Positions 7,818 to 60,159 are shown, counted from the first letter of the stretch. The stretch is 64,000 nt of DNA from Oscarella lobularis (GCF_947507565.1 NC_089177.1:490648-554647); one strand, 5' to 3'. Numbers and translations are program-made. Notes: generated by a model not told the origin, from the sequence alone.

Positions 7818-9810
7818 ATGGTTCACACTCTCGTCGACATTTGCCTACGTTCGGTTGGCCAGTGCATTGGCATACTAAGCCAAGTGCGTCGTTTCTTGCC
7901 GTGGAAGGACAAGGAACGGCTGATCGAGCGAATGTGCAGCCATCGTCTCTTTACGCCCACTCTCCTGCCCTCCGTGACGTATCACCTATTCGCACCCGAG
8001 CTAAAAAGCGTCTGCTTGGAGTGGAACGATCAGGTGATCGACGGCGTTCTCGTGCAATTGAGCAAATGCGGTTGCCAGCTCCGTTATCTAAAAATCGACG
8101 GATGCAAGAAAATCACAGGCAAGACCGTAACGTCCAAGGTTTCTGATTTTCTATTTAATTCCTCAAACAGACGACGGCATCTCCGCTCTGTTGAAAAGCC
8201 AATTCGAACTCGTTCATCTCGAGTTGAAAAACCTCGCTTCCGGCCTGAAAATGATCGGGTTGAGAGAACTCCACGCGGAAAATCTCGCCTACGTCGAGTT
8301 GAAATCGCTTGACGCGCTCGCCGACGAGACGCTCAAATGCTTCACGGAAAATTGCCCCTGCATAAAGGTCCTTCTACTAAAGAACTGCAGAAAGGTTTCG
8401 TCACTCGGAATAGCAGCCGTCGCTGCCACACTAAAGGAGAGCCTTGTAAGAGATAAAGGGAGTCGACTAAACCTTAGTATATGCACTTTGGCACAGGAGT
8501 GTATAAATTTGACTGGAGTTCATGACGTTTCAGATGATGCTATATTGGCTTTGGCCGAGCATTGTCCTAATTTGACGAAGGCGTTATGTCATGGATGCAG
8601 CCGTGTGAGTGGATCAGCTTTTGTTAAGGTGAGCCTACAATCCTAAGATCTTTATCTTGTTATTATTTATTCATTTCTAAGCTTGTTGAAGCGACGAGCG
8701 TTGCGAGTATTGAGCTCTCGTTTTGCTTTGGGGTGTCTGACACCGACATCTTGTCACTGGCCAAATCGCCCGTCATTCGATCTCAACTAAAGTGCCTAGA
8801 ACTGTACGGTCTTCAGATTATGGAGTCGACGCTAATTCGAGCCTTGGGCGACGGCGGCTTGAACCGACTCGCTGAACTTCACTTGTCTAGCAGTGTGTCC
8901 GTAACGGATGCAGCCGTTGAGACAGTGAGTACTTCTTGGCAATTTTTGATTAATTTTAGTCGATTATTTTTAGATTGTTTCTCATTGTGGAGATCATTTG
9001 GCTGTGCTGGACCTGAGCACGTGCTCGCAGCTCACCGATCGCTGTTGCCAGCACGTATCTCGTCATTGTCGCGTCTTGCAGAATATCAACTTTTCTCTGT
9101 GCTCGGAAATTACGGCTATAGATCTGCTCCCGCTTATTCGAGATCGGGAGAGAGGAGAAAAAATTAAAGTGCTGACCTTTACTGGCTGCCGACGGGTAAG
9201 GAGAATTTAATCAATCAATTGATCAATGACTTCTCCTTTTTCACTAGATATGTTTGGAATTTATTAATGCTATAGCAGATCACTGTCCGTTTATTGAAGT
9301 TTTGTTGCTTGCTGGCGTTGCAGCAGTCGACGATGGGGCACTGCAAGGAATATCTCGCCACTGCAGACAGTTAAGATTTGTTGGCCTCAAGGGATGCACC
9401 CAGGTCTCTACGATTTTTTAAATCTGTGTAACGTCAAATATTTATTGTGTGTACAGGTGACTGACGAGGGTGTCTGCGCTCTTGCTCAGTACTGCCCGCT
9501 TCGTATGCTTGTCATCTCGGGCATTCACGCGCTTACGGATAAGGTGATCTTTTCTCTCGCCTCTCACTGCTGCTCAAGACTTGAAGAAATCTACATGGCT
9601 GGCTGTGCTCAGATTACCCCTGCTGCTGTCCGATATTTGCAGGTAAACGCTTGTACTCCCTCTCCAACCGCTGTACGTAGGTTTTTTTGTGGCTATTGCA
9701 GGATTGCTGCGTGAAGCGACCGTGGGTACATCACAAAATACCAAATGCGGCACCAGACCTACTAATGGCAAAAAACCTGGACACGGGAGAATTTTGTAAG
9801 GTCAGTAGCA
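7818..9810 (+). CDS. Leucine-rich-repeat protein, AMN1/FBXL-like, about 8 exons. Exon boundaries are approximate.
   Basis: The N-terminus MVHTLVDICLRSVGQCIG resembles the AMN1 start. Successive cysteine-containing LRRs follow: CGCQLRYLKIDGCKKITG, ITDDGISALL, CPCIKVLLLKNCRKVS, CPNLTKALCHGCSRVS, LDLSTCSQLTD, LVISGIHALTD, CSRLEEIYMAGCAQIT. The exons are carried by several ORFs in alternating frames. Confidence 0.6.
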
Positions 9811-9982: not shown

Positions 9983-12900
9983 CTAATACTTCCTCCTCCT
10001 TTTGGGTATAAGCTTGTGTTCAACGACGTCGTTAAAGCTAATGGTCGTCGTTCGCTTGCGCTTGGGCCTTTCCGGGGTTACGTAGTAATTCTCCGGCGCT
10101 TTCAGTATTCCCTGATCGTTTTCATCATTCTTTTTCACCAGCCGTCGAGAGCTACGCTTGATATCCATCGCTACAGGAGCGGGATCAACGTTGACCTTCT
10201 TTCCCCGACGAGTTGACTTCGTGGCAGCCGGCATCAGCGCCGCCACATCCTGACCGGCAGCCGTTCGCGATCGAACTCTCGCGCTCCGCCTCAACGTCGG
10301 CGGATTCTCTTCAGCAGATTCCGGTGCAGCGGCCGCTCGCTTCGTCCTCCTCCTCGTCGTCGTCGTCACTTCAGCAGCCTGTTCCGCCATCGTCTCAACA
10401 GCTAGTGCCGCCGTTTGCTTTCTCGTTGTTCTCTTCTTCGTCACTTCAACAGCAACCGGTTTCGCATCAGCAACTGGTGCTTGCTTCTTCGTCGTTCTCT
10501 TTCTCGTTGTCACTTTGGCAGCAGGTTCGGGTACCGTCGCTACTTCAGGAGCTGGTGCGGCCCCTCGTCTCCTAGTCGCCCGCGTGACCCTCTGCGCCGT
10601 CGCTACTCGAACAGAAGGAGCCCGATTTCGCGCCGATCGTCTCAGGACCATTCCGCCGCCACAGTCCGGGATTGCAAAGAGCGCTGACTCAAAGTTCTTC
10701 TCCGGCGAGGCATCGTTCTTCATCTTTGGCATTCTGAACAATCGCGTCAGCCCATCAAACGCCGAAAGCGACTCTTTCTTCTCTTTCAACGGGCTCGGCC
10801 ACTTCGGCGTAGCAAACATAGTCGGGCAGAAATTTGCCTCGACGTCCTCTTGAGCGTTTTTACTCTTTCGCTGCGGCGTCTTGAACAAATTCGCCTCGTA
10901 CACGTCCTCAACGTTGATTTCCGTCGCGACGGCCTTTTCCTCGACGAGACAAGCTCGTTTTGCAACCGGCGACATAACAAAGTCCGAAGATTTGCGACCG
11001 GAAGCGCCGGTAAATCGAAAAACTGGCTTTGTCGTCGTCGTCGTCGTCGTCGTCGGCGGCGGCTTTTTCAATCGTCTCACACCCTTCAATACCTTTCGTC
11101 CGGCAATCTCCGCTTTCTTTCGCGACACCGTCGATCGCATGATCTCTGACCCGTCAACCGTTTCATTGAACGGAATTCTCTCCACCATCTTTACGCGCTC
11201 AATGGCCGCCGCTTTCTTCTGCGCCGCTCGTCGCAGCGTCATTCCGCCTTCGATCGCTTTACGCAGCGGCGTCTGCATCTTTCGTTTTGCGCGTCGCAAC
11301 AGAGACCGAGCCGCCACGCGGCCAATCTCCTCTCGAATCGGAGTAGCGAGACGTTTCTTCTTCTTCAACGATATCCCCGCTTTGATTTCGTTTCTCATTG
11401 GAGTCGCCATCTTTCTCTTCGTCGTCTTCAGTTGGAGTCCCTGTGCAATTGCCTTTCTCAACGGAGTGAGCATACGTTTCTTCTTTGTCTTCAATTCCAG
11501 TCCCTCTTCTATTTCTTTCCTCATTGGCGTATTCATTCGTTTCCTCGTCGGCTTCAAGTTGAAACCCTTTTGAATTTCCTTCCTCATTGGAGTCGCCAGT
11601 CTCTTCTTTGTCTTTCTCAAAGCAACCCCGGCCTTTATTTCTTTCCGAACGGGAGTAGCCATCTTCTGTTTCGTCTTTCTCAAGTCAAGCCCCTCTTCTA
11701 TTTCCTTCCTCATCGGAGTAGCCATTCTCTTCTTCGTCTGCTTCAAAGTCACCCCGGATTCAATTTCCGTTCTAACAGGAGTAGCCAATTTCTTTTTCGT
11801 TTTTCTCAATTCAATTCCCTCTTCTATTTCTTCTCGCATCGGAGTCTCCATTCTTTTCTTTGTTGGCCTCAGTTCAAGTCCTTCTTGAATTTCCTTTCTC
11901 ACGGGAGTAGCCAATCTCTTCTTTGTCTCCTTCAAAGTGATGCCAGCTTCTATTTCTTTCCTCACAGGAGTAGCCATCTTCTTCTTCGTCTCCCTCAATT
12001 CCGTCCCCTTTTCAATTTCCTTCCTCATGGGAGTAGCCATCCTTTTCTTTGTCTCCTTCAATGCAGTCCCTGACTCGATTTCTTTTCTCAGAGGAGTATA
12101 TAGTCTCTTCTTCGTTGGCCTCAATTCGACGCCCTCTTCTATTTCCTTTCTCACAGGCGTAGCCATCTTCATCTTCGTCTCCTTCAAAGGAACGCCCGAT
12201 TCAATTTCCTCGCGCATAGGCGTAGCCATTCTTTTCTTAGTCGCTTTCATTTCCAAACCCTCTTCGATCTCCTTTCTCATAGGAGTAGCCATTCTCTTTG
12301 GAACGGCGCTGCGATCAATTTTTGAGCTATCGGCTTCATCCATTTTCTCATCGTCAAAGTCGAGATGCGGAGGATCCAGCGTTTTCCGGCGAATCTGACT
12401 GCGCTTTGGCGTCTTCAAAAAGCCCGGAGACGATCGTCGGCGTCCATCTGGAGTCCGCCCCAGCTTCACGGGCATCTTCGGTGGAAGATGCTTATCAAAA
12501 TATTCGGGACTCAGCATGGGACCGAAACGAATACTCCGTCGCGGCTCGAAAGCACTTCCGGCATCGACATCATTTACTTGATTCGTGACGTCAACGCTAT
12601 CGGTCTCCATGGAAATGACGTCATCAGTCCCCTCCCCCTCTTCGCACAAGGGCGCAAGCGGACGAAACGAATTGGACGATTTCGGCTTCGGTTTTCTCGG
12701 CGGCGTCGGCGTGCGTCGCTTCTGCTTCGACGACGGTATTTCCTTCAGCGGCGACGCGACGGGGACGTTTTCTCCGGGATATTCGAATCGAAAGTAACGG
12801 TCGGCGATCTTGATCATGTCCTTGTGAGCGAGACGCGCGCGACCCGTCAACGGCTTGTCGTTGACGTACGTATCGTATGCGTTGCTGAGATTCTCGATAT

Positions 12901-13196
12901 CGAACTGAATAGAATCGGGTTTCGCGGTGTGTTACGTTGTGTGTGGGGGCGTGGTTTGCTTACCGTTTTCTCCGCGTTCGCAGTCAATTTTGCGTGCTCT
13001 TGCGCGACTTTTGGCAGTTGAACGCGTATGTCGCAGTCTCTGTCTCTAATGCGAGTAGGAAATCGTTTGCTAGAGAACGCATTGCGTTGTTATGTTCGAC
13101 CTACCTGCCGAATAAGCAGATGTCAGCCGAAATGGGGAAAGCGCGGCCATCTCGACCGTTGCGATGAATGATTACGACGTTTCCAATGACGGACAT
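9983..13196 (-). CDS. MKI67: Ki-67-like proliferation marker protein. Exons (minus strand): 13105-13196, 12964-13045, 9983-12904.
   Basis: Exon 1 starts at ATG 13196 and reads MSVIGNVVIIHRNGRDGRAFPISADICLFGR, like the Ki-67 FHA start MWPTRRLVTIKRSGVDGPHFPLSLSTCLFGR. Exon 2 reads DCDIRVQLPKVAQEHAKL. Exon 3 reads FDIENLSNAYDTYVNDKPLTGRARLAHKDMIKIADRYFRFEYP, followed by a long array of KKRMATPMRKEIEEG(L/V)ELK repeats that carry S/T-P-x-K/R CDK sites, and a basic C-terminus. Confidence 0.7.
11150..12300 (-). repeat. Coding tandem repeat array: about 24 copies of a 48-nt (16-aa) unit, T-K-K-R-M-A-T-P-M-R-K-E-I-E-E-G.
   Basis: The repeated peptide units are visible in the 955-aa ORF. The opposite strand shows shadow ORFs. 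Confidence 0.85.
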
Positions 13197-13338
13197 GCCG
13201 AGAATTTGGCGAGAAACAACTAGCAGACGCAGTTACTGCCAGTTAGTAGTTTGAATTGACGGCTGCGCGCTCGCTGGCGTCTGATTGGTCCGCTCGTCGG
13301 TGCTTCAACGCCCGTAGGCACGGGACTTGGGAAGCCAA

Positions 13339-14990
13339 GATGGCAGACGTACGAACTCTCGAACACGCGACTTTGAAGGTACAGCAAAGATTCTATTCAA
13401 CAAAACGCATTTAAAACACTACTCGAAACGCTTTGGAGTTCCTTTTATTCGAATTCGTCACGTTTCTAGGTTCCTTACGAACTTCTCAACAAAAAATTCC
13501 GCATGTCGCAACGCTCTATCGACCGCGAAATAACCTACGTAACGACAGCGGCTAACGAACTAACAGATCGGCTCATAAACGACGGGCGCAAGATGAGAAT
13601 TTCCGAAGCGAAGACCGCAATCACGGGCGTGGTGGAAAAACTTCAAAACCTCAAAAGAAAAGTACACACAGAAAGGACGCGCATGGCATAGAACGACGTG
13701 CCTTTGTTCGCGTAGGCGGAGGAGTGCTTCGATCAGGAAGACGAATGCCTTCGTCTGTGCAAAACGCGTATCAGTCATTTGGAGGAATATGCGTCTTCCG
13801 ATGGCGGTGTCACGGGCGTTTCGTCAAGCGACGTGCGAGCGTGGAAGGAAAAGAGAATCGATCGGATGCTCGTTGATCATTGTTTGAGATCGGGGTTTTA
13901 CGACACGGCGTCTCTATTGGCTAAAGAGGCTGATATTGAGGTGAGAGAGTGTGTGTTGGGGGCTATTGAAAATTTTTTCTTAGAATCTGGTTGATACGGA
14001 AGTGTTTATGGTGTCAAGAAAAGTTGAGGAGGCGCTGAGGAGACGGGAAACGGGACCCTGCTTGGCGTGGTGCTACGAGAATCGATACAAATTGAGAAAA
14101 ATAAAGGTGAGACTGACTATGAGGTAGTGGGAAAAATTGCTCCTCAAGACTCGTTTCCGCGCAGAGCACACTAGAATTCAATGTCAAAGTACAAGATTTT
14201 GTAGAGCTTGTTCGATCGAGGCGAACAGCAGATGCTTTAAAGTAATTAAATAACTGTATTAATTTTCTCAGCGATCAACTACATGTAGATACGCAAAGAA
14301 GTACTTCAGCTCAGTGGAGGAGAGTCTTCTAGGAGAAATGCAATCTGTCATGGCTCTTCTTGCATTTTCAGACAGCACTCAGTGTCCTCCATATAAGGTA
14401 TGATTACTTGCTATATTAGCTTATCATCGTTTCATACACGTAGAGACTGTTTGATGAAAGCAGATGGCGTCTTCTCATTGATCAATTCCGTCAGGACAAT
14501 TTTTCCTTGCATCAGCTCAACGGCCGCTCACTGCTCTCCGTAACGCTCCAGGCTGGATTGACAGCTCTCAAAACGAGGTAGCAAGTGCATGAAAGACAAC
14601 TTTTAGTGTATCACACGAGATCCATATCAGGCAATGCTACAAGGAACAGGAACGGAATCCCGAGTGTCCGGTCTGCATTGCACCGCTCAACGAATTGGCT
14701 CGTCCTCTTCCCTTTGCTCACTTCAGCCAATCCCGTCTCATTTGTGCCATAAGCGGGCAACGCATGGATGAGCACAATCCCCCCATAGTTCTTCCCAATG
14801 GTCAAGTGTACAGCAAAACGGTGATAACAGTCTAGCACTTGCCCACTTGACTTCCCTAGTCACTTGACTATATGTGTTCTCATAGGCTCTGGCTAGTGCT
14901 GCTGCTCATTCAAGTGAGAACAAGGTCACCTGCCCCAAAACGCAAGAACAATTTCACATCAACGATGCGAAAAAGTTATACATTATGTAG
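13339..14990 (+). CDS. MAEA: MAEA/GID9-like E3 ligase subunit (LisH-CTLH-RING-Gid). Exon 1 is 13339-13377 and exon 2 is 13470-13661. Further exons run to the stop TAG at 14988-14990.
   Basis: The spliced product reads [13 protein letters not shown]|[21 protein letters not shown]...[18 protein letters not shown]...[23 protein letters not shown]...[52 protein letters not shown]. Confidence 0.8.
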
Positions 14991-15227: not shown

Positions 15228-15915
<688 letters not shown>

Positions 15916-28348: not shown

Positions 28349-30434
28349 GTGATGAACTACACCGAAGTCGAAGCGAAGGTTCGCGAGGCAACGAACGACG
28401 AAACGTGGGGTCCCCACGGCACGCTCATGCAAGAAATCGCGAAATTCACGTTCACGTACGAACACTTTCCCGAAGTCATGGCAATGCTCTGGAAACGAAT
28501 GCTCGAAAACAATCCCAAGCACTGGCGACGTTGCTACAAGGTACGAAATAGATCGTCGCTAGTTTTATCCAGGCCGAATGCCGGATCCTTCTCGAAGGCG
28601 CTTCTCCTATTGGCCTATTTGCTTCGAAACGGGAGCGAACGAGTCGTTTCGAGCGCACGCGATCATCTCTACGATATGCGACCTCTCGAAGACTTCCAGT
28701 ATCGCGACGATCGCGGCAAGGATCAGGGAATCAACGGTAAAGGGAACTACACGGTTTCGTGCCACGCCCCTCATTCATCTCTTGCAAATAGTGCGTCAAA
28801 AGGCGAGGGAGGTCGTTGGACTGCTGCAGGACGACGAGAAAATACGCGAAGAGCGAAAGAAGGCGAAAAAGTCGAGGGATAAATATGTTGGCGTTTCATC
28901 TGACCAATTCCAAAGGGGTTACGGTAAATTTTTAAATTAATTGATAGATGATAAATAGTGTTATAAATCGTTACTTTTAGGCGATTACGGCGATGAGCCC
29001 AGGCGACGCGGACGGGATCGTTACGATGAATATGATGACGAATTGAGACGGGATTCGAGTGGGTGGAAAAGTTCGCGAGATCGTCGCAATCGCTACAATG
29101 ACGACGATGACGACTACGATAGTGATTCCTACAGAGGTCGCCGGCAGCATAGAAAACCGTATAAAGATGAAGAATCGTATGTAGAGAAATGACAGTTCTT
29201 AGAGTTTTAAAGTTTTTTTCTTTAGTGGCGACGAGAATGATGCTGCTGCAACGCAGGAGGAGGAGGAGCCAAAGAAGCCAGTAGCAGCTCCAGCTCCCAG
29301 CGCAGCGCAGCCTCAGCCGCTGAAATTGGTTCAGCTAAGTGGAATCAAGCCGGCTGCTGAACCGGATGATCCCTTTGGGCAGTTCAGTGCCGGTAGAGCG
29401 GCTCAGCCCGCTGCACCTGCTCCCCCTGCAAGTTCGGGTAAACTTTACGATGGCTGGTGTTGATTAGTGATTGAGGTAAACTTAGGTGCTGGTGATTTTG
29501 CTGCTTTTCAGTCCGCTGCTCCGGTTCCTGCTCCTGCTCCAGCTCCAGCTGCTTCTTCCACTTTCAACGCTTTTGCTGACTTCCAGTCAGCTCCAGTTGC
29601 AGCGGCTCCCGCTCCCGTCCCAGTGCAGCCAGTAGCATCTCAGCAACCATCATCCGGCTTTGCAGATTTTGCGGGATTTCAATCAGCTCCTCCTGCTCCT
29701 GCTGCTCCAGCACAACCACTATCAGCCATTCAGATAATGCAACAGCAGCCACTTCTAATGGAGGCAAGGAAATCTTACTTTAGTTGGTTTTTTTGTCATT
29801 GCGCTATGTAATCGTTTTTTAGCCTGCTACTAGTCCGCCACCCCAGAAGCAAGCTGAGCCTTTACCTGCAATGTCAACAACGGTACGCCGGGACTAAGCA
29901 TTGATTTTATGTGTATGCATCTCTTTCTTTTAGCCGTCGCATTCCTCCAAATCGACGTTGTGGAGCGGTGCTAGCGTTGATATTAGCCTTGATAGTTTGA
30001 GCCCGAATGCAGCGAAAGGCAAAACCCAGTCGTCTCAGCCGAGCATGAATCAACTTGCTCAGCAATCGCAACCGCCGGCTCAGACAACCGTAACGGGCAT
30101 GATGTCAGGAATGTCGTTGGGAGGTGCAGGGATGTCGCCGCAACAGACCCCACCGCAGAGAATGGGAATGGGCATGGGTATGCCGATGATGGGAATGGGA
30201 GCGTCGCCTCAGATGATGGCGCCCGGAATGGCTGGCTATCGGCAGCCAATGGGAATGGGCATGGGAATGGGCATGGGAATGGGCATGGGAATGGGAATGG
30301 GAATGCAGGGCGGAGGAATGATGGGAGGCATGCCAGCTGGTGCCGGTGCCGGTATGATGTATCAGCAAGGGCGAATGGGCGCGCCGCAGACTTATCCCGG
30401 CGGCATGGGAGGCTATGGAGGCGGCTTTCAATGA
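28349..30434 (+). CDS. CLINT1: Clathrin interactor 1 / epsinR (ENTH-domain protein), multi-exon, with a Met/Gly-rich C-terminus.
   Basis: ENTH domain: NYTEVEAKVREATNDETWGPHGTLMQEIAKFTFTYEHFPEVMAMLWKRMLENNPKHWRRCYK | ALLLLAYLLRNGSERVVSSARDHLYDMRPLEDFQYRDDRGKDQGIN | QKAREVVGLLQDDEKIREERKKAKKSRDKYVG. The tail is P/A/Q-rich with (MG)n, ...PMGMGMGMGMGMGMGMGMQGGGMMGGM. Confidence 0.85.
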
Positions 30435-45158: not shown

Positions 45159-48100
45159 ATGAACGACTCGATCGACGACCCGTCCCTACTCGCCGTCGCC
45201 GACGGCGCGTGCGCGCGCTCGTCATCGTCGTCGTCTTCGGTCCGATCGGACACATACGTTCAAGATGGACCAAATATCGAAGAATCGGTGCCGTCGCCGC
45301 CGCCTCCGCCGCCGCCGCCGCCCGAGTCGCGATCCGTCGCCGCCGCCGCTTCGATCGACGTCGTCGCCCAATACGATCGTCTTCTCGACGGTATACGAAA
45401 TCGAGACTTGACGGCCGTCACGTCGCTGCTCAACGAAACTCCCGATCTATTGAAATCGCCGGCGGAGTTTCATTCGTCCAAAGACGACGTCAGCGCGCGG
45501 GGGCGCGGTCAAAACATGACAGCGGCACGTGCCTTGTCGGCGGCCATATGCGCGGATTCGTTTCACATGGTTAGCTTCCTTTTGGAAAGGGGAGCTCATC
45601 TGGTTCCGGATGCGAAACGTCCGCCCACGCCTATTGGGAGCGAAGAGAACGACGACGACGACGAAATGATCGATCCGTTGATATTGGCAACGCGTCGCGG
45701 CGACGGCGATCTCGTGCGACTTCTTCTGCGCGGCGGCGCGACGCCGATTGCGCGCGATCGTCAAGGACGCACGGCGATGCATTGGGCCGCCGAGCGACGC
45801 GCGCGCGACTGCGTCGTCGCGCTGCTCGAAGCCGGCGCGCCGATTCGCGTCGACGACGACGACGGCGTTCAAGCCGTCGATCTGATGCCCGACTTGGAAG
45901 CGCGACAATCTCGTCTCGTGCGCGATTCGCTCGAAATTTTCGAACAGAAGCAGACGTCGAAGGATCCGACGGCGTTGATACGGAAACGACGGCGCGGCAC
46001 GATTGGAATCGATTCGTTGATTTTTGCCGCCGTCGATCCGGCGTCGTCGCTTGGCGGCGGCGGCGGAAGCGCCGTTTCGGACGAGGTGAAAGCGTTGGAA
46101 ATTTTGACGGGACTTTCGCGAAACGACGAGTGTCTGCCGACGATCTTGGCCGGCCTGCCCGACTGCATACCGGGCATCATACTTCACTCGCAACTCAGCT
46201 GGGGATCGGATATGAGCGACGCCGTCACGAAATTCATGAGAAGTATACGCAAGGTACTATCGAACAGCTGGCCTCATTAACACATTTGACGTTGATTGGG
46301 TTTTTTTTTTGAAGGCGACTTTGAAGAGTCTCAATAATAATCAAGGTCTCTTGATGCAGTGCGCTTTGGAGTTCGTTCAAGGCGGTCAGGAAATGCAGGC
46401 GGAAGCGCTTTGCATTATCGACGATTTGATTGAAGCGAATCGAGCCGATTTTACGCCGTCATCGTCGCCGTCGTCGTCGTCGTCGTGCAACTTTCGTCTT
46501 CACGTCTCGCATCGTCCCGTCGAGGCCGTTCTCTCGTCCGCCTCGTCGTCGTCTACAGCGACGTCGTCGTCGTCGACGGCAACCGAACGTACGATGACGG
46601 CGACAGCGGAATGTCCGTCGTCGCCAATTGACGTTCTCTGCATGACCGATCCGTCGCCGCTTCTTCACGTCCTCTCCAGCGCGCTCGCGATTCACTTCCG
46701 ATCCGGTATCGGGGGACAGTGCGCCAAAGGAGTCAATTCCATGCAGCTAATCGTCGCAAAGGCTCTCGCCGTCGCCAGCCTATCGCCGACCATGCAAAGC
46801 CGACTCGCAAAAGATCATCACGCAAAGTCTTTATTGGAAGTGTTAGAGAAAGCGACGAATCCGGTAAGAACCAGTCTTAAAGAGACCACCTGTCTATTGT
46901 GATCGCTCTCGCTATTATTTTTATAGCGGTCGCAATAGGCAGCAATTTGACACTTCCACACTCTATTTCTCTCTCCCTCCCTCACGCAGGTTGTCATTGA
47001 CTTGACGCTCTGCATATTGGCCTCCCTCGTCGAAAATCCTCAGCATCACGAAGCGCTCGCGCGTCTCCAAGCGTCCGATCGCCTGCGCGCCTTTCTCCAA
47101 TCCGCCTCTCTTCGTGTTGGGGGCAGTGCGGATAGCGGCGCGCGCGCTCTCCTACCCCAACTCCGTCATCGCGTCGCCTATCTCCTCGTCGCGCTCGGCG
47201 CCGTCGCCACCGAAGCCGATCAACTCGACGGCGTCTATCTGTTCGCGTCGATGGTGAAAAAATCCCAAAGCGGAGTCAGCTGTTTTTCGATTCCCGAAGA
47301 CGACACCAACGTATTCAATCTGCGTCAACGATTCGGTTCCCAAGGAAACGGCGACGACGACGACGACGACGAAACGTCGAAACGATTCGTCGCCTCTCTA
47401 CCCAACGTTCTCGCCCCCGTTTCCATAATACGTCATTTGACGTCAAATTCCGAAATAGACACGGACGCCTTTTTGGACTTTTTTCTTGGCGTCGCCGTGA
47501 CGGCACTCCATCCGGTCATATTTCTTCGTCTTCTACGTCACAGTCTCTTCTCGCATCCCGCCTTCGTTCTGCTCCTTCGACCGTCGAGACGACGTTCGAG
47601 TCAGAATTCGTCGCTTCGAAGCGGACGCCGTAGCGTCGTGTCGCTGTCGTTGCCGTCCGGCGGCGGTGGCGACGACGCGTGGGAAGGCGTCGCGATGCCG
47701 GAGTTTCATCGGCGCGTTTTGCGAGTGTTGACCGAGTGGATGAAACGCTACGGGGCCGACGTGATGGACAGTTCGCTCGCCGCCGAAGAGATTAAGCATT
47801 TTATGTTGGATTTGCAGGCAGTCGGGTTTGGCTACGAAGTGTGGGTTGAGCACGTCAATTCTCTGCTCGTCGCTCAGGTGAGGGAATATTTGGCCACCAA
47901 AGTGAATAAATATATGATCATTTCTTTGTTTTTATTAGGATGTTCGATTGATTAAGAAAAAGTCGAGTTTGTGTTTGATGACGGAAGACGATCTACGAAG
48001 TCACTACGAGAAAGTAAGTGTCGTCGTATCTAAAAAGAAATAAAAAAAACACTATCTTCTTTTAGTTAAAAATTCAAATTCTTTCCGACGAATTACCGTG

Positions 48101-48881: not shown

Positions 48882-48924
<43 letters not shown>

Positions 48925-49536
48925 CGGCGGGCGTTCCAGCAGCACTAGCGGCGTCGACGGCGAAGAAACCGACTCATTCGACGATACGGTCATGATGCGA
49001 ATGACGGCGGCGGCGGCGGCCGGAGCGGCCACGGCGGCGACAAGAAAGACGTTCAAGACGTCGTCGAACTCGTCGTTGCGATCGGTTCACGACGAATTCG
49101 CCTCGTCGAACGAGAGGCTCGCCAACTTGGCGTCGTTTATCGGTTTTCCTGAGGAAGTCGCGCGACGGTTGACGGAGCGCGAGGAGAAATTGTTTCGACT
49201 CGTTGCGCCCGCCGCCTACGTGCGACACGCGCTCATTGAACGAACGGAGTCGGCGCGACGATCGCGAACGTCGAAGAGTCATACGACCGTGTTGAATTTG
49301 GCGAAGCGTTTTGGAAATGTTCGTTGAAGGAGGAAAAAATGAAGGGGAGCGACTAATTCGTTTTTTTAGGTTAGTGGATGGGTGAGTCGGTTGGTTGCTT
49401 CTGCGGCGAAGGTGGGCGATCGTCGCGTTGCGATTTCGTCGCTGCTTCGCGTCGCCGCGGCCTGTCGCAATTTGGGAAATCTCATGGGAATGATGGAAGT
49501 TCTGACTGGACTAACGTACGTAGAATCATCTCTAAA

Positions 49537-52500: not shown

Positions 52501-54796
52501 CGACGCCGACTATCAGCCTGATCCGCGACTGCCCTCGCCCGAGCAGCTCAAGTACAAGATCCTCATCAAAAACAAGAAAAAGCCGCCGGATGCGTTTTCG
52601 CAGCAACAACTGTTAGCACGAAACGTTGAACCGGACTTTGATGACATCGAGGAAGAACTCGGCGACGACGGCGACGGTAAGTCGCTTGCATTCTTGTTTA
52701 TAATTATAACCCCATAATGCATGCAGACACTCAAGGCAAATACGGAACGCTCTCAAGACGTCAAAATCCGTCTGGAAGCGGTCTTCTTGACGACGACAGC
52801 GGCGGCGCGACGGAAGGCACCGGCACGCTATCTCGCATGAGAGGTCTCGATTTTCGAATGTCATTGGACCGTGCGAGCTACGACGCCGCCGCCGATCCCA
52901 TGGGCGTCGGCGGCAATCTCATGTCGCCTGAACCGACGTACAAACGGCAAAAGGAGACGAACAAAATCGCCGACGAACTATCTCGTCTCGTCATCTACAC
53001 GCAGGCGATCAAATTCACCGGTTTATCGTCCGGACTTCCAACGTCTATTTCCTTTCCCGGCGGCACGAGCGGTGCGAGCGGTGTGAGCACGACTATGCTC
53101 AGCTCTTTGCTCGAAGACCAATCGTCGTATACTCCGCCGTCGCGACGCTCCTCGTTTGCCGTGCCGCCGCCGACGCAGCGACCGCGTGCCGCCTCGGAGG
53201 TTAATCCGGCGACGATCAGTCTGATTTCGCGCAAGGCGAGCGATCGGAAATTGTCGTCGCCCGAACCGCTGCCCACGTGGTCGTCGCCGGGGCAACGACG
53301 ACCGTCGATTTGCAGTCGAGCGTCGTCGATGAATTCGTCGACTGCAAGTAGCTGCGGCTACGATGGACTCGTCGCGTTTCGGCTCTCCGGTTCGGGCTCC
53401 GCGCCCGGATCTTCGTACGATTTGGCGAGAATGAGTGAAACGCCGCGCGCCTTTCAAATGTCGTCCGTCGGCGAAAGCACGGGAAAGAAATTGGTTAAGA
53501 AGCAGTCGAATGAGCTTATCGTGTAAGATAAAGGACGTTTCGCGTTGGGACGCAATTCCACTTGTGATCGATCCCTTGTTTATAATTGTTCTCTTTTTAT
53601 CTGTAGTCACACTGAGCTGCAGCTGATGCGCGTTTATCCGGCAGCGAAACGCATCGACTCGTCGAATTTTAATCCGCTTCAGTTTTGGCTGTGCGGACTG
53701 CAATTTGTCGCTTTGAATTATCAGACTGAGGGTACGTCGATTTTATTAATTAATGTATTCGTTGTTGAGTGTTCCTTAGATTCGGCTATGCAACTAAATC
53801 GCTCCATGTTCAGTCAGAACGGCGGCTGCGGTTACGTTCTGAAACCGTATGTCTACTGGAGTCACTCGGCTCCATTTACGACGTTCAATCCTTTTGAAAC
53901 CGAACAGCCAAACGTCGCCCCGTTGACAGTTACCGTAAAGGTAAATAGGAACATCTACATGAAAAGAGAATAGGCACACGACGCTTTTTCTTTATAGGTT
54001 GTATCTGGTCAGCGGCTAAGTTCCAATTTTACCACGAGCGTTTCGGTTGAGGTGGAATTGACGGGCATCCCCTCGGATTACAACAAACACAAAACGAAAC
54101 AGTCTAACCGAAATGCGTTGAATCCCGTGTGGGACGAAACGTTCGTCTATAAGGTAAAGAGAGATCTCGCGTTGCTTGCTGCAAAAGGGCACGTGCAATT
54201 CTTTTTTTCAGGTGGCCTTCCGTGAGCTTGCTTTTGTTCGATTTACCGTGTGGGAGTCGAATTCTCAGACACTGCTTGCCCAGCGAGTCGTTCCTTTGCG
54301 GCATCTCAGACAAGGTTTGAAGAGAAATAAATAGCTATAGTGTAGTTACATGTATATTAAACGCTCTCTTTTTTTTTTCCCCCTATAGGATATAGACACC
54401 TTCGGTTGCACTCAGCACAGGACAGTCCCCTGGAGGTTGCAACGCTTTTTATTGCTACTCGAATGACAGAAGATTACGAAGAAAGCGACGACGGCACCTG
54501 CACTGGCGGGTGGGATTATCAGCGTTTACATCACGAAATTTGGCGTGAAAAAAATGTGCCGGTAAGTTGTTCGAGCGTCTGCGTGCGCTCCGCCTTTTAC
54601 GCCGCGTGTCTTCATGCAGACTTGTCCGGAAGAGCGACGCAGTTCCGCAGATAGCATTGATTGTGAGCGAGTCACTGAGGAGGAAAAAGGAACGTCGGAA
54701 GGTACCAGTAACGACAAAAACAAAAACAAGAATTCGAACTCCGAAACGGACAGTTGGACTCGAAAGGAATTTAACATTGTAAGGTACGACGTGTAA
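45159..54796 (+). CDS. PLCE1: PLC-epsilon-like phosphoinositide phospholipase C with an N-terminal ankyrin-repeat region. Architecture: ANK - RasGEF(CDC25) - PH - EF - X - Y - C2. Many exons.
   Basis: ANK: [59 protein letters not shown]25-like: [34 protein letters not shown]...[20 protein letters not shown]: [17 protein letters not shown]...[14 protein letters not shown]: [35 protein letters not shown] / [36 protein letters not shown] / [12 protein letters not shown]: [42 protein letters not shown]...[10 protein letters not shown]2: ...[11 protein letters not shown]...GYRHLRLHS. No RA domains follow the C2. Confidence 0.7.
48889..48935 (+). repeat. (GGC)n coding microsatellite (poly-Gly) inside the PLC-like gene
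   Basis: ggcggcggcggcggc... Confidence 0.9.
49531..49575. repeat. (GA)n microsatellite, intronic
   Basis: agagagagagagagagagagagag. Confidence 0.9.
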
Positions 54797-58282: not shown

Positions 58283-58582
58283 TTTTCAGGATTGGGGTCC
58301 TGGGCATGACCCCGTCATTAAAAACTGCTGCATCGGGGTCCTGGGCAAGACCCCGTCATCAAAAACTGCCTCACAGGGGGTCCTGGGCATGACCCCGTCA
58401 AAACTGCCCATGCATGAAACGCGAAGGGAAACTCTGTGCATTTTTTTCAAATTTATTAAATAAATTGACCGTCCCTCCCCTTCAATTTACGAGCAGTTTT
58501 TGATCACGGGGTCATGCTCAGGACCCCGGGCGAGAGCAGTTTTTACCTACGGGGTCATGCTCAGGACCCCGACTCCTAAAAA
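58283..58582. repeat. Inverted-repeat / hairpin cluster. Three direct copies of a 35-bp unit (GGGGTCCTGGGCATGACCCCGTCAttAAAAACTGC) are followed about 95 bp later by two copies in the opposite orientation. It could be a foldback or MITE-like element.
   Basis: 58292-58400 versus 58493-58580 are reverse complements (ggggtcctgggcatgaccccgt / acggggtcatgctcaggacccc). Each unit is itself an imperfect hairpin, GGGGTC-N8-GACCCC. Confidence 0.6.
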
Positions 58583-58924: not shown

Positions 58925-59012
58925 CTTGCGTCCCTTTAGATCTGTGCTCGAAACAAGAAACAAAACGATTTTTTTCCCTTTAGATCTGTGCGCGAAACAA
59001 GAAACAAAACGA
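58925..59012. repeat. Direct tandem duplication of a 44-bp unit
   Basis: cctttagatctgtgc(t/g)cgaaacaagaaacaaaacgattt appears twice back to back. Confidence 0.8.
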
Positions 59013-60159
59013 TTTCGCGACGACGCTTTCTACGTCGTTTACACTGCAAATGCCACGAACGCCATATGCCGTTGTTGAGTCGAAGTCGCTCGTTTCGCTC
59101 TGGAACGTCGTCATGTTCTTCCAGTGTTTCCATTTGCGGATGAACGAGCCCCGTGCTGCCAAGACGACGACGTCAGAGGCGACGAAACGCGACGCAATTC
59201 GCTTGCCTGCAAGTAGCTCCGGCGATTCAGAATGCAATCGGGACGCTCTGTATTTCCATGAGCCCCTTCCTCAAGGACGTCGCGCACATGCGATGTCAGA
59301 GAAACTCGACACTCAAAACGGCCGAGGTCCCCTAAGGGGAAACGAGCGGAGAAAAACGCTACAAAGGCTTGCGAAGAAGGAAGACTCCAGATACCTTGGA
59401 CTCAAGCTTGGCACGGCTTCCGAACAGCGAAGAGCAACCTCTTGCAACAGCGAACAGCCGCATGCTCGCTCGAGCGCAATCTAAAAAGAGCTTCATGCTA
59501 AACTGGATGCGTCAGTGTGTAGAAAACGAACCCGAATGAGCCGAGGAGTCTCCGGTATCGATGAGGAGCGTTCGAGAGAAATCTCCTGCTCGAGGCGTCG
59601 AAGCAGCTACAGTACGGGACGTGAAGCACGTGATCAGAGTACATGTAATAGGACTGCATCAGCAGCTCCCGTACAAGTAAATTTGCTGCAGTACTTGGTG
59701 TTCAGATTTCTTTCTTTAGACATTTATTTTTTCCCCCGAGGGGATGCACCGAGCCCGGAGGTAGTGCAAAACCGGGACGATGCGCGAGAGAGGCGCAGCA
59801 AGCTGCATTCCTCATCTCTAATTCCAAAGATTAAGTTAATCTTGGAGCCGGGCGATGCCCGGCGTCTCAGAGATTAAACTGAGAAGAACAGATACTACAC
59901 TTGATCTTAGCCAAAAGGCCGAGAAGCGATAACGATGACTGCTTCGCGCTCGGTTATATACCCTTTCTAGGGTTACTTCAATTGTTGAGGATGGCGCACA
60001 AAAGTGATTCTAACGCAGCCGTAAGCACCAGATTCTATCTATATCTTTCATCTGTGCACAACGCTGTTTCGCTTTGGCTTATCTTTCGCCTGCTTCTTAC
60101 GTTCAGCTGACGACGTTCTGAGAGGAACGTTCTAACGTACTCGATTGTCACGTGATAAG

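Follow-up and report, generated by a model that had tools for sequence, protein, structure and literature searches.

INTRODUCTION

Few proliferation markers are used as much as Ki-67, which was for decades thought to be confined to vertebrates. Its family is marked by a location at the periphery of mitotic chromosomes and in the nucleolus, and by an activity that disperses chromosomes. Here we compare this protein and its described relatives with a Ki-67-like gene of the homoscleromorph sponge Oscarella lobularis, which lies on the minus strand of a 64,000-nucleotide (nt) stretch of DNA (GCF_947507565.1 NC_089177.1:490648-554647; hereafter the window, with positions counted from its first nucleotide). 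The repeat domains of vertebrate Ki-67 are phospho-regulated, and phosphorylation creates charge blocks (PMC9106583). Phosphorylation of Ki-67 is counteracted by PP2A-B55 (PMC11290319), and at mitotic exit the loss of phosphates uncovers a conserved basic patch and drives condensation that depends on RNA (bioRxiv 10.1101/2023.11.23.568026). A preprint of June 2026 reported Ki-67-like proteins outside vertebrates, in Amphimedon queenslandica (A0A1X7VPY3), Monosiga brevicollis and Hydra (T2MFQ8); its Table 1 gives repeats of 23x19aa for Amphimedon and 21x21+ for Monosiga, and also lists Hydra (bioRxiv 10.64898/2026.06.18.733134). According to the same preprint, phosphorylation reverses the net charge of human Ki-67, whereas the Amphimedon protein stays positive (+168 to +96), and the intrinsically disordered regions are said to share biophysical features only, with 'extremely low sequence homology', so that the non-vertebrate homologues would have no more than the FHA domain and these features in common. 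A Ki-67-like class in sponges and other non-vertebrates is already described, and the Oscarella gene adds a member.

The Oscarella protein carries a tandem array of 21-residue units, each with a consensus site for cyclin-dependent kinase (CDK). New here, as judged from alignments, are the conservation of this Thr-Pro (TP) unit across lineages and its absence from the chordate proteins tested. For the locus as a whole, the best explanation is probably a Ki-67 orthologue that acts as a chromosome surfactant switched by CDK and phosphatases.

RESULTS

Gene structure and N-terminal domains

By translation and inspection of splice sites, one minus-strand gene with three exons and a product of 1031 amino acids (aa) fills 13196-9983 exactly (Table 1), and these limits are those given in a preliminary description of the region that had been made from the DNA alone. 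Exon 1 encodes exactly the first residues quoted there, MSVIGNVVIIHRNGRDGRAFPISADICLFGR. Along its whole length, the assembled protein shows 100% identity to the RefSeq entry 'proliferation marker protein Ki-67-like [Oscarella lobularis]', and the gene model built here is the RefSeq model. From N- to C-terminus, a Ki-67-type FHA domain is followed by a PP1-docking motif, 17 tandem units of 21 residues, a degenerate trace of the Ki-67-repeat core and a very basic tail. It has an isoelectric point (pI) of 10.5, a net charge of +114 and 30 [ST]P sites, 24 of them being full consensus [ST]Px[KR]. In a full-length AlphaFold2 (AF2) model built from 29 homologues, the predicted local distance difference test score (pLDDT) is <50 everywhere except in the FHA domain and the array. 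The protein thus shows the traits of its family, being large, basic and mostly disordered, with internal repeats and many CDK sites.

The preliminary description had named a failing FHA-profile search as a possible refutation of its Ki-67/MKI67 homologue; the Pfam profile (PF00498) matches aa 28-91 with E 1.1e-11. The best PDB sequence matches of the protein are the human Ki-67 FHA structures 2aff/1r21 (E 7e-19), and the next family follows at E 2.5e-4. The domain is predicted with a pLDDT of 82-96, and Foldseek places it on 2aff with a template modelling (TM) score of 0.90, a root-mean-square deviation of 1.3 A and 42% identity, at an E-value four orders of magnitude better than that for the next FHA domain. 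Identity to the fish Ki-67 FHA is 50% (BLAST). From these matches and the predicted fold, we assign the domain to the Ki-67 subtype.

Further downstream lies a second Ki-67 hallmark that was absent from the preliminary description, a predicted PP1-docking site of the Ki-67/RepoMan type. Pfam PP1_bind (PF15276) matches this region with E 5.7e-8 (33.3 bits against a cutoff of 27). Moreover, the human Ki-67 peptide from its complex with PP1 (5j28_C, E 2.3e-5) ranks third among the PDB matches of the protein, and the RepoMan chains 5ioh/5inb also match the region at E ~2e-3 (best 1.7e-3). The only invariant columns of the family alignment fall here. The homology claim thus stands on the Pfam FHA match, the human Ki-67 FHA as top match, the PP1-docking region and the RefSeq name; by these similarities, the locus is the Ki-67 gene of O. 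lobularis and is correctly annotated already.

Tandem array of 21-residue units

Seventeen units make up the array, 15 of 21 aa, one of 20 aa and one of 24 aa, with the consensus TKKRMATPMRKEIEEGLELKx and TPxR in every unit. Over 11385-12298, Tandem Repeats Finder (TRF) gives periods of 63, 126 and 189 nt with scores of 379-540, and it reports no period of 48 nt over the array. At the protein level, a shift of 21 residues gives a self-identity of 54%, and a shift of 16 residues one of 3.8%. These data disagree with the about 24 copies of a 48-nt, 16-residue unit that had been proposed. The size of 16 was a miscount, as the unit spelled at the time, TKKRMATPMRKEIEEG(L)ELK, is itself ~20 residues long, and 24 corresponds to the full CDK sites of the whole protein, not to its units. 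The further claim that every unit holds a T-P-x-R/K CDK motif is borne out, 17 of the 17 units having T-P-x-R (TP[MVLI]R). Overall, the preliminary observation is partly confirmed, with wrong unit size and number, and its Ki-67 interpretation is supported.

The array had also been called very regular, which is true of the protein but not of the DNA: nucleotide identity between units is 46-81% (mean 68%), and the longest common exact word has 18 nt. Third codon positions vary most between units. Each of the invariant T, P, R, I and G is written with two to five different synonymous codons, and in the 14 in-register units the invariant Pro and Gly use all four codons each and Arg five. The mean identity and the synonymous codon spread argue for selection on the protein and not for recent duplication. 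On this evidence, the array is old and kept by purifying selection on the protein; it does not look like a recent amplification of the collapse-prone kind. The reading frame is open across the array within an open reading frame (ORF) of 955 codons, which together with the TRF scores excludes a chance origin. The risk of assembly collapse that had been raised is low, because the DNA of the units has diverged and no exact word >18 nt is common to any two of them.

Each unit is laid out as a 10-residue basic patch, KKR-M-A-T-P-M-R-K, with the CDK-consensus Thr in its centre and a charge of ~+5 over the ten residues K2-K11, followed by an acidic/helical part, E-I-E-E-G-L-E-L-K. In the full-length AF2 model, the array appears as a string of helices, each beginning at Thr-Pro and often broken at Gly16, with a pLDDT of 56-78. 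A folded solenoid gained no support, since the model of six isolated units, computed from an in-register alignment, reached a pLDDT of 46.6 and a predicted TM score (pTM) of 0.14. Judged from these models, we regard the array as disordered, with a propensity to form helices. Comparison of the unit with solved structures and Pfam gave no significant match.

Conservation of the unit in other proteins

With a hidden Markov model (HMM) built from the Oscarella units, the 21-residue spacing was found to be kept in 45 of 51 homologues. The HMM detected 3-23 units in these 45 relatives and 12-23 in the closest, with 23 in Corticium candelabrum. Other carriers of the array are Geodia barretti, the choanoflagellate Mylnosiga fluctuans (with FHA, PP1_bind and SAP domains) and Hydra vulgaris (XP_012558509.2, with FHA, PP1 motif and 19 units); further named members are Sanderia malayensis, Ephydatia muelleri, the choanoflagellate Barroeca monosierra and a EukProt record labelled GoldUCD, which is probably Aurelia. 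The same HMM found no units in two fish Ki-67 proteins or in the Ki-67-like protein of the tunicate Styela. By this measure, choanoflagellates, sponges and cnidarians have Ki-67-like proteins in which both the unit and its period of 21 residues are conserved; the fish and tunicate proteins tested have neither. We considered whether the vertebrate repeat descends from the 21-aa unit and rejected this, as nothing above shuffled controls was found in fish and Styela. The human Ki-67 repeats gave no unit HMM signal above shuffled controls either, and this is a lead only.

Across relatives the unit consensus is TKKxMATPLRKEIxxGxxLRx. In 578 distinct units, T7 is present in 99%, P8 in 98%, R/K10 in 95%, I13 in 97%, L19 in 88% and G16 or P17 in 86%; TP occurs in 97% and Ser-Pro in 0.5%, the Thr-Pro figure of 99% being inflated by ascertainment bias as the detecting HMM was built from TP-containing units. 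Positions 5 and 9 are hydrophobic. The Oscarella array has all the defining traits of the unit, namely T7-P8, R/K10, I13, G16 or P17, L19 and basic residues at 2-4. Looser relatives also exist: Ki-67-type FHA proteins of Rhodelphis marinus and of the mucoromycete fungus Jimgerdemannia flammicorona repeat the core LATP[LVM][RK]xxI with other spacings and weaker matches.

An exhaustive search of 1.84 billion representative proteins with a three-unit profile yielded 117 proteins at E <=1e-3, 45 of them at <=1e-30. Among the new representatives, 39 were 600 aa or longer; our own HMMs found a Ki-67-type FHA domain and/or PP1 motif in 23 of these, and most of the remaining ones resemble fragments starting within the array. 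A repeat-only profile run against a word-indexed database of 5.8 billion entries returned 8000 candidates, none significant, its prefilter being swamped by low-complexity words. Motif strings such as ATPLRK did not occur in the literature searched, a body of 8 million papers.

Three observations on single relatives were made along with this search. The H. vulgaris protein XP_065677257.1 (P0193, in the 90% cluster of P0094) has FHA, PP1 motif and 21-aa repeats and carries the name 'kinesin-like protein KIF20B isoform X1', its sister isoforms being entered as 'uncharacterized protein LOC100205951'; it is probably a misnamed Hydra Ki-67 homologue. Ki-67-like proteins of unicellular lineages, P0043 (M. 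fluctuans) and P0051, end in SAP domains and not in a basic tail (PF02037, E 4e-17 in P0043), and these ends would be a different, putative chromatin anchor on the same chassis of FHA, PP1 motif and repeats. P0046 (1723 aa, ENA) has central 21-aa units and long Ser/Pro-rich flanks but lacks both the FHA domain and the PP1 motif; its gene model may be fused or mispredicted, or the unit may occur here in a second architecture.

Charge of the array

The computed net charge of the array falls from +60 to +26 when all 17 Thr are phosphorylated. In addition, the share of strongly basic 9-residue windows of the array falls from 38% to 19% on full phosphorylation.

C-terminal half of the protein

Downstream of the array, a poly-threonine run is encoded by a (GTC)8 microsatellite, whose length could vary between individuals. 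The next segment, aa 729-791 (NLFKTPQRKSKNAQEDVEANFCPTMFATPK...DGLTRLFRMPKMK), resembles GLKRLMKTPK...F.TP regions of three relatives, P0008, P0040 and P0070 (BLAST, E ~1e-7), and such cores occur in fish and tunicate Ki-67 too. An HMM of cores from fish, tunicate and P0023 (a JGI metatranscriptome protein) scores the Oscarella segment at 3.4 bits, equal to the best of 500 shuffles. By this similarity, what Oscarella keeps of the Ki-67-repeat module is only a vestige. Profile comparison by hhalign between chordate and sponge/cnidarian windows of this core was significant but circular, as one regular expression had picked both sets, and it was not used. The Pfam Ki-67 repeat K167R (PF08065, ~110-122 aa, FKELF core) gave no match in the Oscarella protein even at E 10, in agreement with the earlier statement that the array stands instead of the vertebrate 122-aa repeats. 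The Styela protein and P0023 likewise have no PF08065 match; PF08065 repeats mark vertebrate Ki-67 and not the wider family.

The basic C-terminal tail, presumed to be a chromatin anchor, is predicted with a pLDDT <50. An alignment to MKI67 had been proposed for both ends of the protein; the FHA part aligned (E 7e-19, human Ki-67), whereas the tail ('LR domain') had no BLAST similarity to any relative, Corticium included. The motif [RK]RS[SA]R, present three times in the tail, is seen again in C-terminal regions throughout the family: Hydra has six copies, Styela has four, and VRRSSRLRK-COOH or a close variant is the extreme C-terminus of 13 relatives. C-terminal [RK]RS[SA]R was seen in P0011, P0027-P0045, P0094 and P0049. 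This motif may resemble the HMGN nucleosome acidic-patch motif RRSARLSA and the LRSAR motifs of the human LR domain.

Promoter and neighbourhood

The 143 bp that separate the gene from its divergent neighbour, a putative bidirectional promoter, contain an E2F-like site, a CHR (a region of homology among cell-cycle genes) and a CCAAT box, which occur together in 0.6% of the 143-bp windows in the 64-kb sequence. Proliferation-linked expression that peaks in G2/M through CHR and related elements is a trait of the Ki-67 family. Transcription of human MKI67 depends on two CHR elements and a cell-cycle-dependent element (PMC8629999). From their sequence, we infer that the motifs in the sponge fit proliferation-linked expression. 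Four other clusters of E2F-like, CHR and CCAAT motifs within 143 bp lie at 15495-15592, 45887-45939, 52809-52853 and 53354-53453, and these may be putative promoters of further cell-cycle genes.

The divergent neighbour, apparently MAEA-like, gave only a sub-threshold LisH match (exon 13779-13994). On the plus strand at ~8700-9800, a convergent neighbour has ORFs resembling leucine-rich-repeat/F-box (FBXL) exons, and its 3' end lies ~130-180 bp from the Ki-67 stop; the single exon of it submitted to Pfam had no match. The array is the sole large tandem repeat within the window. Small unrelated repeats, comprising (AATGGG)n, (GCG)16 and two 41-44-nt duplications, are found at 30248-30305, 48882-48930, 58294-58400 and 58931-59015.

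Table 1. Features of the Ki-67-like locus of Oscarella lobularis, in positions of the window
Feature	Position	Strand	Residues and details	Basis
CDS exon 1	13105..13196	-	aa 1-31; ATG at 13196-13194	translation and GT donor
CDS exon 2, FHA middle	12964..13045	-		GT..AG boundaries; frame restores FHA alignment with human Ki-67
CDS exon 3	9983..12904	-	aa 59-1031 and stop codon 9985-9983	single 955-codon ORF
Two introns	13046-13104 and 12905-12963	-	59 nt each	GT..AG
FHA domain, predicted	12779..13196, span includes both introns	-	aa 1-100	Pfam, PDB sequence match, AF2, Foldseek
Ala44 codon	13067-13069 as listed	-	assigned to exon 2	
PP1-docking region, predicted	12383..12541	-	aa 180-232, RSIRFGPMLSPEYFDKHLPPKMPVKLG	Pfam PF15276 and PDB matches
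RVxF motif RSIRF	12524-12538	-	aa 181-185	fits [RK]-x(0,1)-[VI]-{P}-[FW]
Tandem array, 17 units x 21 aa (63 nt)	11228..12304	-	aa 259-617	TRF, unit table, lag identity
Poly-threonine run T8	11030..11053	-	aa 674-681; perfect (GTC)8 on + strand	TRF period 3 at 11031-11055
Vestigial Ki-67-repeat core, putative	10706..10894	-	aa 729-791; NLFKTPQRK...EDVEANF..MFATPK...DGLTRLFRMPKMK	
Basic C-terminal tail	9986..10678	-	aa 801-1031; 231 residues, pI 11.5, net +34, single [ST]P	
Three [RK]RS[SA]R motifs in tail	10622-10648, 10271-10297, 10133-10165	-		motif scan
Intergenic region, 143 bp	13197..13339	.	shared with divergent gene (ATG at 13340)	motif scan
E2F-like TTTGGCG	13205		within 143-bp region	
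CHR TTTGAA	13250		within 143-bp region	
CCAAT box (ATTGG; GACCAATCAG on gene's strand)	13284		within 143-bp region	

DISCUSSION

Phosphorylation and a possible mechanism

The presence of consensus sites in every unit leads us to infer that the array is phospho-regulated. If the sponge protein acts like vertebrate Ki-67, it would be a surfactant of the chromosome surface with its basic tail anchored on chromatin. During mitosis, CDK1 would phosphorylate the 17 array Thr, which would split and half-neutralise each basic patch, so that the array would release RNA and chromatin and project as a brush. At mitotic exit, docked PP1 and PP2A-B55 would strip the phosphates from the array, and the re-exposed basic patches would then drive RNA-dependent coalescence and nucleolar or heterochromatin association. 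The tail, which has hardly any CDK sites, would hold the protein on chromatin, giving the amphiphilic layout of the surfactant model. PP2A-B55 and PP1 prefer phosphothreonine (pThr) flanked by basic residues, and this preference would explain the near-exclusive use of Thr in the units.

Several results weigh against this explanation, either against its electrostatic part or against the orthology on which it is built. Full phosphorylation does not reverse the net charge of the whole protein (+114 to +54), nor does it raise a simple measure of blockiness (standard deviation over windows, 2.18 to 2.15), and the 'charge-block gain' model of PMC9106583 is therefore not directly transferable. In our computation, the best-fitting vertebrate precedent would be the basic patch exposed by dephosphorylation (bioRxiv 10.1101/2023.11.23.568026) and not the creation of charge blocks (PMC9106583), because phosphorylation neither raises blockiness nor reverses net charge. 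Uncharged M5, I13, G16/P17 and L19 are conserved beyond what bulk electrostatics needs; their strict conservation and the exact period thus suggest a specific partner besides charge effects. Orthology rests on the N-terminal 235 residues and the overall architecture, as PF08065 is absent and the C-terminus cannot be aligned. Moreover, the phosphate-contacting Ser of the FHA SxxH motif is replaced by Ala44 in Oscarella; Corticium, Mylnosiga, fish and Styela have Ser at this position, and P0023 has Glu. The pThr-binding FHA residues are given as G-R-S-H-N-N (bioRxiv 10.64898/2026.06.18.733134). The ascertainment bias in the Thr-Pro count counts on the same side.

Alternative explanations

It is possible, if doubtful, that the array is a multivalent docking platform in which each unit is a stereospecific motif for one conserved partner, protein or RNA, with CDK on the cap Thr as a gate. 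In this motif, an amphipathic helix would be capped by Thr-Pro and would end at Gly/Pro, with L-[KR]-x-T-K-K after it; charge would be secondary, and such docking is compatible with the surfactant model. The non-charged positions are the most conserved (I13 97%, L19 88%, hydrophobic 5 and 9, helix breaker G16/P17 86%), the period is exactly 21 residues in 45 proteins from three phyla and choanoflagellates, FHA proteins of Rhodelphis and the mucoromycete fungus repeat the core LATP[LVM][RK]xxI at different spacings, AF2 starts a helix at each Thr-Pro, and the family is extremely narrow, with 117 of 1.84e9 representatives. However, the unit has no significant match among solved structures or Pfam families, AF2 confidence is 56-78 in context and <50 for six isolated units, and chordate Ki-67 lost the unit yet performs its known functions. 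We consider it unlikely that the phosphorylated units are ligands of the protein's own FHA domain, with intermolecular FHA-pThr contacts cross-linking the coat into a network. FHA domains are established to bind pThr and not phosphoserine, the units are nearly all Thr (TP 97% against SP 0.5%), and FHA domain and array co-occur in the family; but Ala occupies the SxxH position in Oscarella, the selectivity of PP1 and PP2A-B55 accounts for the Thr preference just as well, and the known ligand NIFK is bound via an extended beta-strand interface (bioRxiv 10.64898/2026.06.18.733134).

It is very unlikely that the array, or the number of its copies, is an assembly artefact due to collapse or expansion. 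Misassembly is a well-known hazard of tandem arrays, and the sole independent record is the RefSeq model, presumably from the same assembly (a one-member cluster), but units that are 46-81% identical in DNA with a longest shared word of 18 nt let short reads be placed uniquely, the frame is open through all 17 units, and comparable arrays are found in relatives from independent assemblies and transcriptomes. Hardly any credence goes to the view that the units are WH2-like actin-monomer-binding motifs (a helix, then G-x-x-L-K-K-[VT]), which would make the protein a 17-valent CDK-gated actin binder on chromosomes. The top PDB match of the unit profile is indeed the N-WASP tandem WH2 construct 3m3n_W, in register on I-x-x-G-x-x-L-[KR]-K (E 0.15), and of 32 six-unit segments taken from relatives, 11 have a Pfam WH2 match (best E 2e-7). 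The best full-protein score, in Sanderia, is nevertheless 17.9 bits against a cutoff of 23.1, the alignment is limited to HMM positions 11-22, and where the WH2 helix has its second hydrophobic residue, the unit has an invariant Arg. The whole 359-aa Oscarella array and its first six-unit segment are unmatched, and the second Oscarella segment reaches 9.8 bits (E 0.87). In addition, the unrelated families RLMM_N, COMPASS-Shg1 and Asp23 score similarly or better through summation over repeats; WH2 membership was thus rejected on the gathering score of PF02205, the matches being sub-threshold and no better than those of spurious families. Least credible of all is that the protein is another FHA and PP1-binding type, such as a relative of NIPP1 (PPP1R8), which also has an N-terminal FHA domain and RVxF ~100 residues downstream. 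No NIPP1 chain appears among the PDB sequence matches to E 1, while the Ki-67 FHA is found at 7e-19; the PP1 region matches the Ki-67/RepoMan-specific PF15276 and the 5j28 peptide well past RVxF, and 1031 aa with repeats and a basic tail fit Ki-67, not the 351-aa NIPP1.

Significance and comparison with known systems

Along with the preferred explanation of a phospho-switched Ki-67 orthologue, we put forward tentatively, as a proposal that may well fail, that the unit is an ancient, sequence-specific, CDK-gated Ki-67 binding module with the core [KR][KR]x[LM]xTP[LVM][RK]xxI, which would be pre-animal, fixed in period in sponges and cnidarians and lost in chordates. The pre-animal age is proposed because choanoflagellates have the unit, and the fungus and Rhodelphis a looser form. 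If this is true, ancestral Ki-67 worked by multivalent contact with a partner, and the 'unalignable' disordered region has a conserved linear motif. The Oscarella locus offers a clean early-branching example of Ki-67, and the alignable short repeat, with a CDK-consensus Thr in the middle of the patch, gives a sequence-level handle from choanoflagellates to cnidarians. The proposed phospho-masking switch between chromosome repellent and attractant would be simple to mutate, with 17 identical sites against ~90 scattered ones. The locus could also serve as a proliferation-marker gene in sponge cell biology.

With vertebrate Ki-67, the Oscarella protein shares the FHA subtype (42% identity to human by structure, 50% to fish by BLAST; TM 0.90), the extended PP1-docking motif downstream of it, a long basic disordered body with internal CDK-site-rich repeats and a basic C-terminal tail, and the gene shares putative promoter motifs of the CHR/CCAAT/E2F type. 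It differs in lacking the 122-aa K167R repeats, of which there is a 60-residue core vestige only, and in its 17 x 21-aa units, undetectable in fish and tunicate Ki-67 and, as a lead only, in human Ki-67. Moreover, it has one third of the size, a net charge that full CDK phosphorylation does not reverse, a C-terminus that cannot be aligned and Ala in place of the SxxH Ser.

RepoMan/CDCA2 is similar in its PF15276 PP1-docking region (5ioh/5inb, E ~2e-3), but the Ki-67 peptide matches Oscarella better (2.3e-5 against 1.7e-3), and RepoMan is not known to have an FHA domain or repeats of the 21-residue type. The WH2 motif (PF02205) has in common with the unit the pattern h-x-x-x-I-x-x-G-x-x-L-[KR]-x-[TV], a similar length and tandem occurrence; in contrast, the scanned proteins are sub-threshold, the unit has an invariant Arg at the helix hydrophobic position, and the Oscarella protein would be nuclear/chromosomal in context. 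The non-vertebrate Ki-67-like proteins of the 2026 preprint belong to the same class and likewise have an N-terminal FHA domain, a PP1 motif, a basic disordered region, short repeats and many S/T-P sites. That set did not include Oscarella, and the difference here is that the unit can be aligned across choanoflagellates, sponges and cnidarians with a fixed period of 21 residues.

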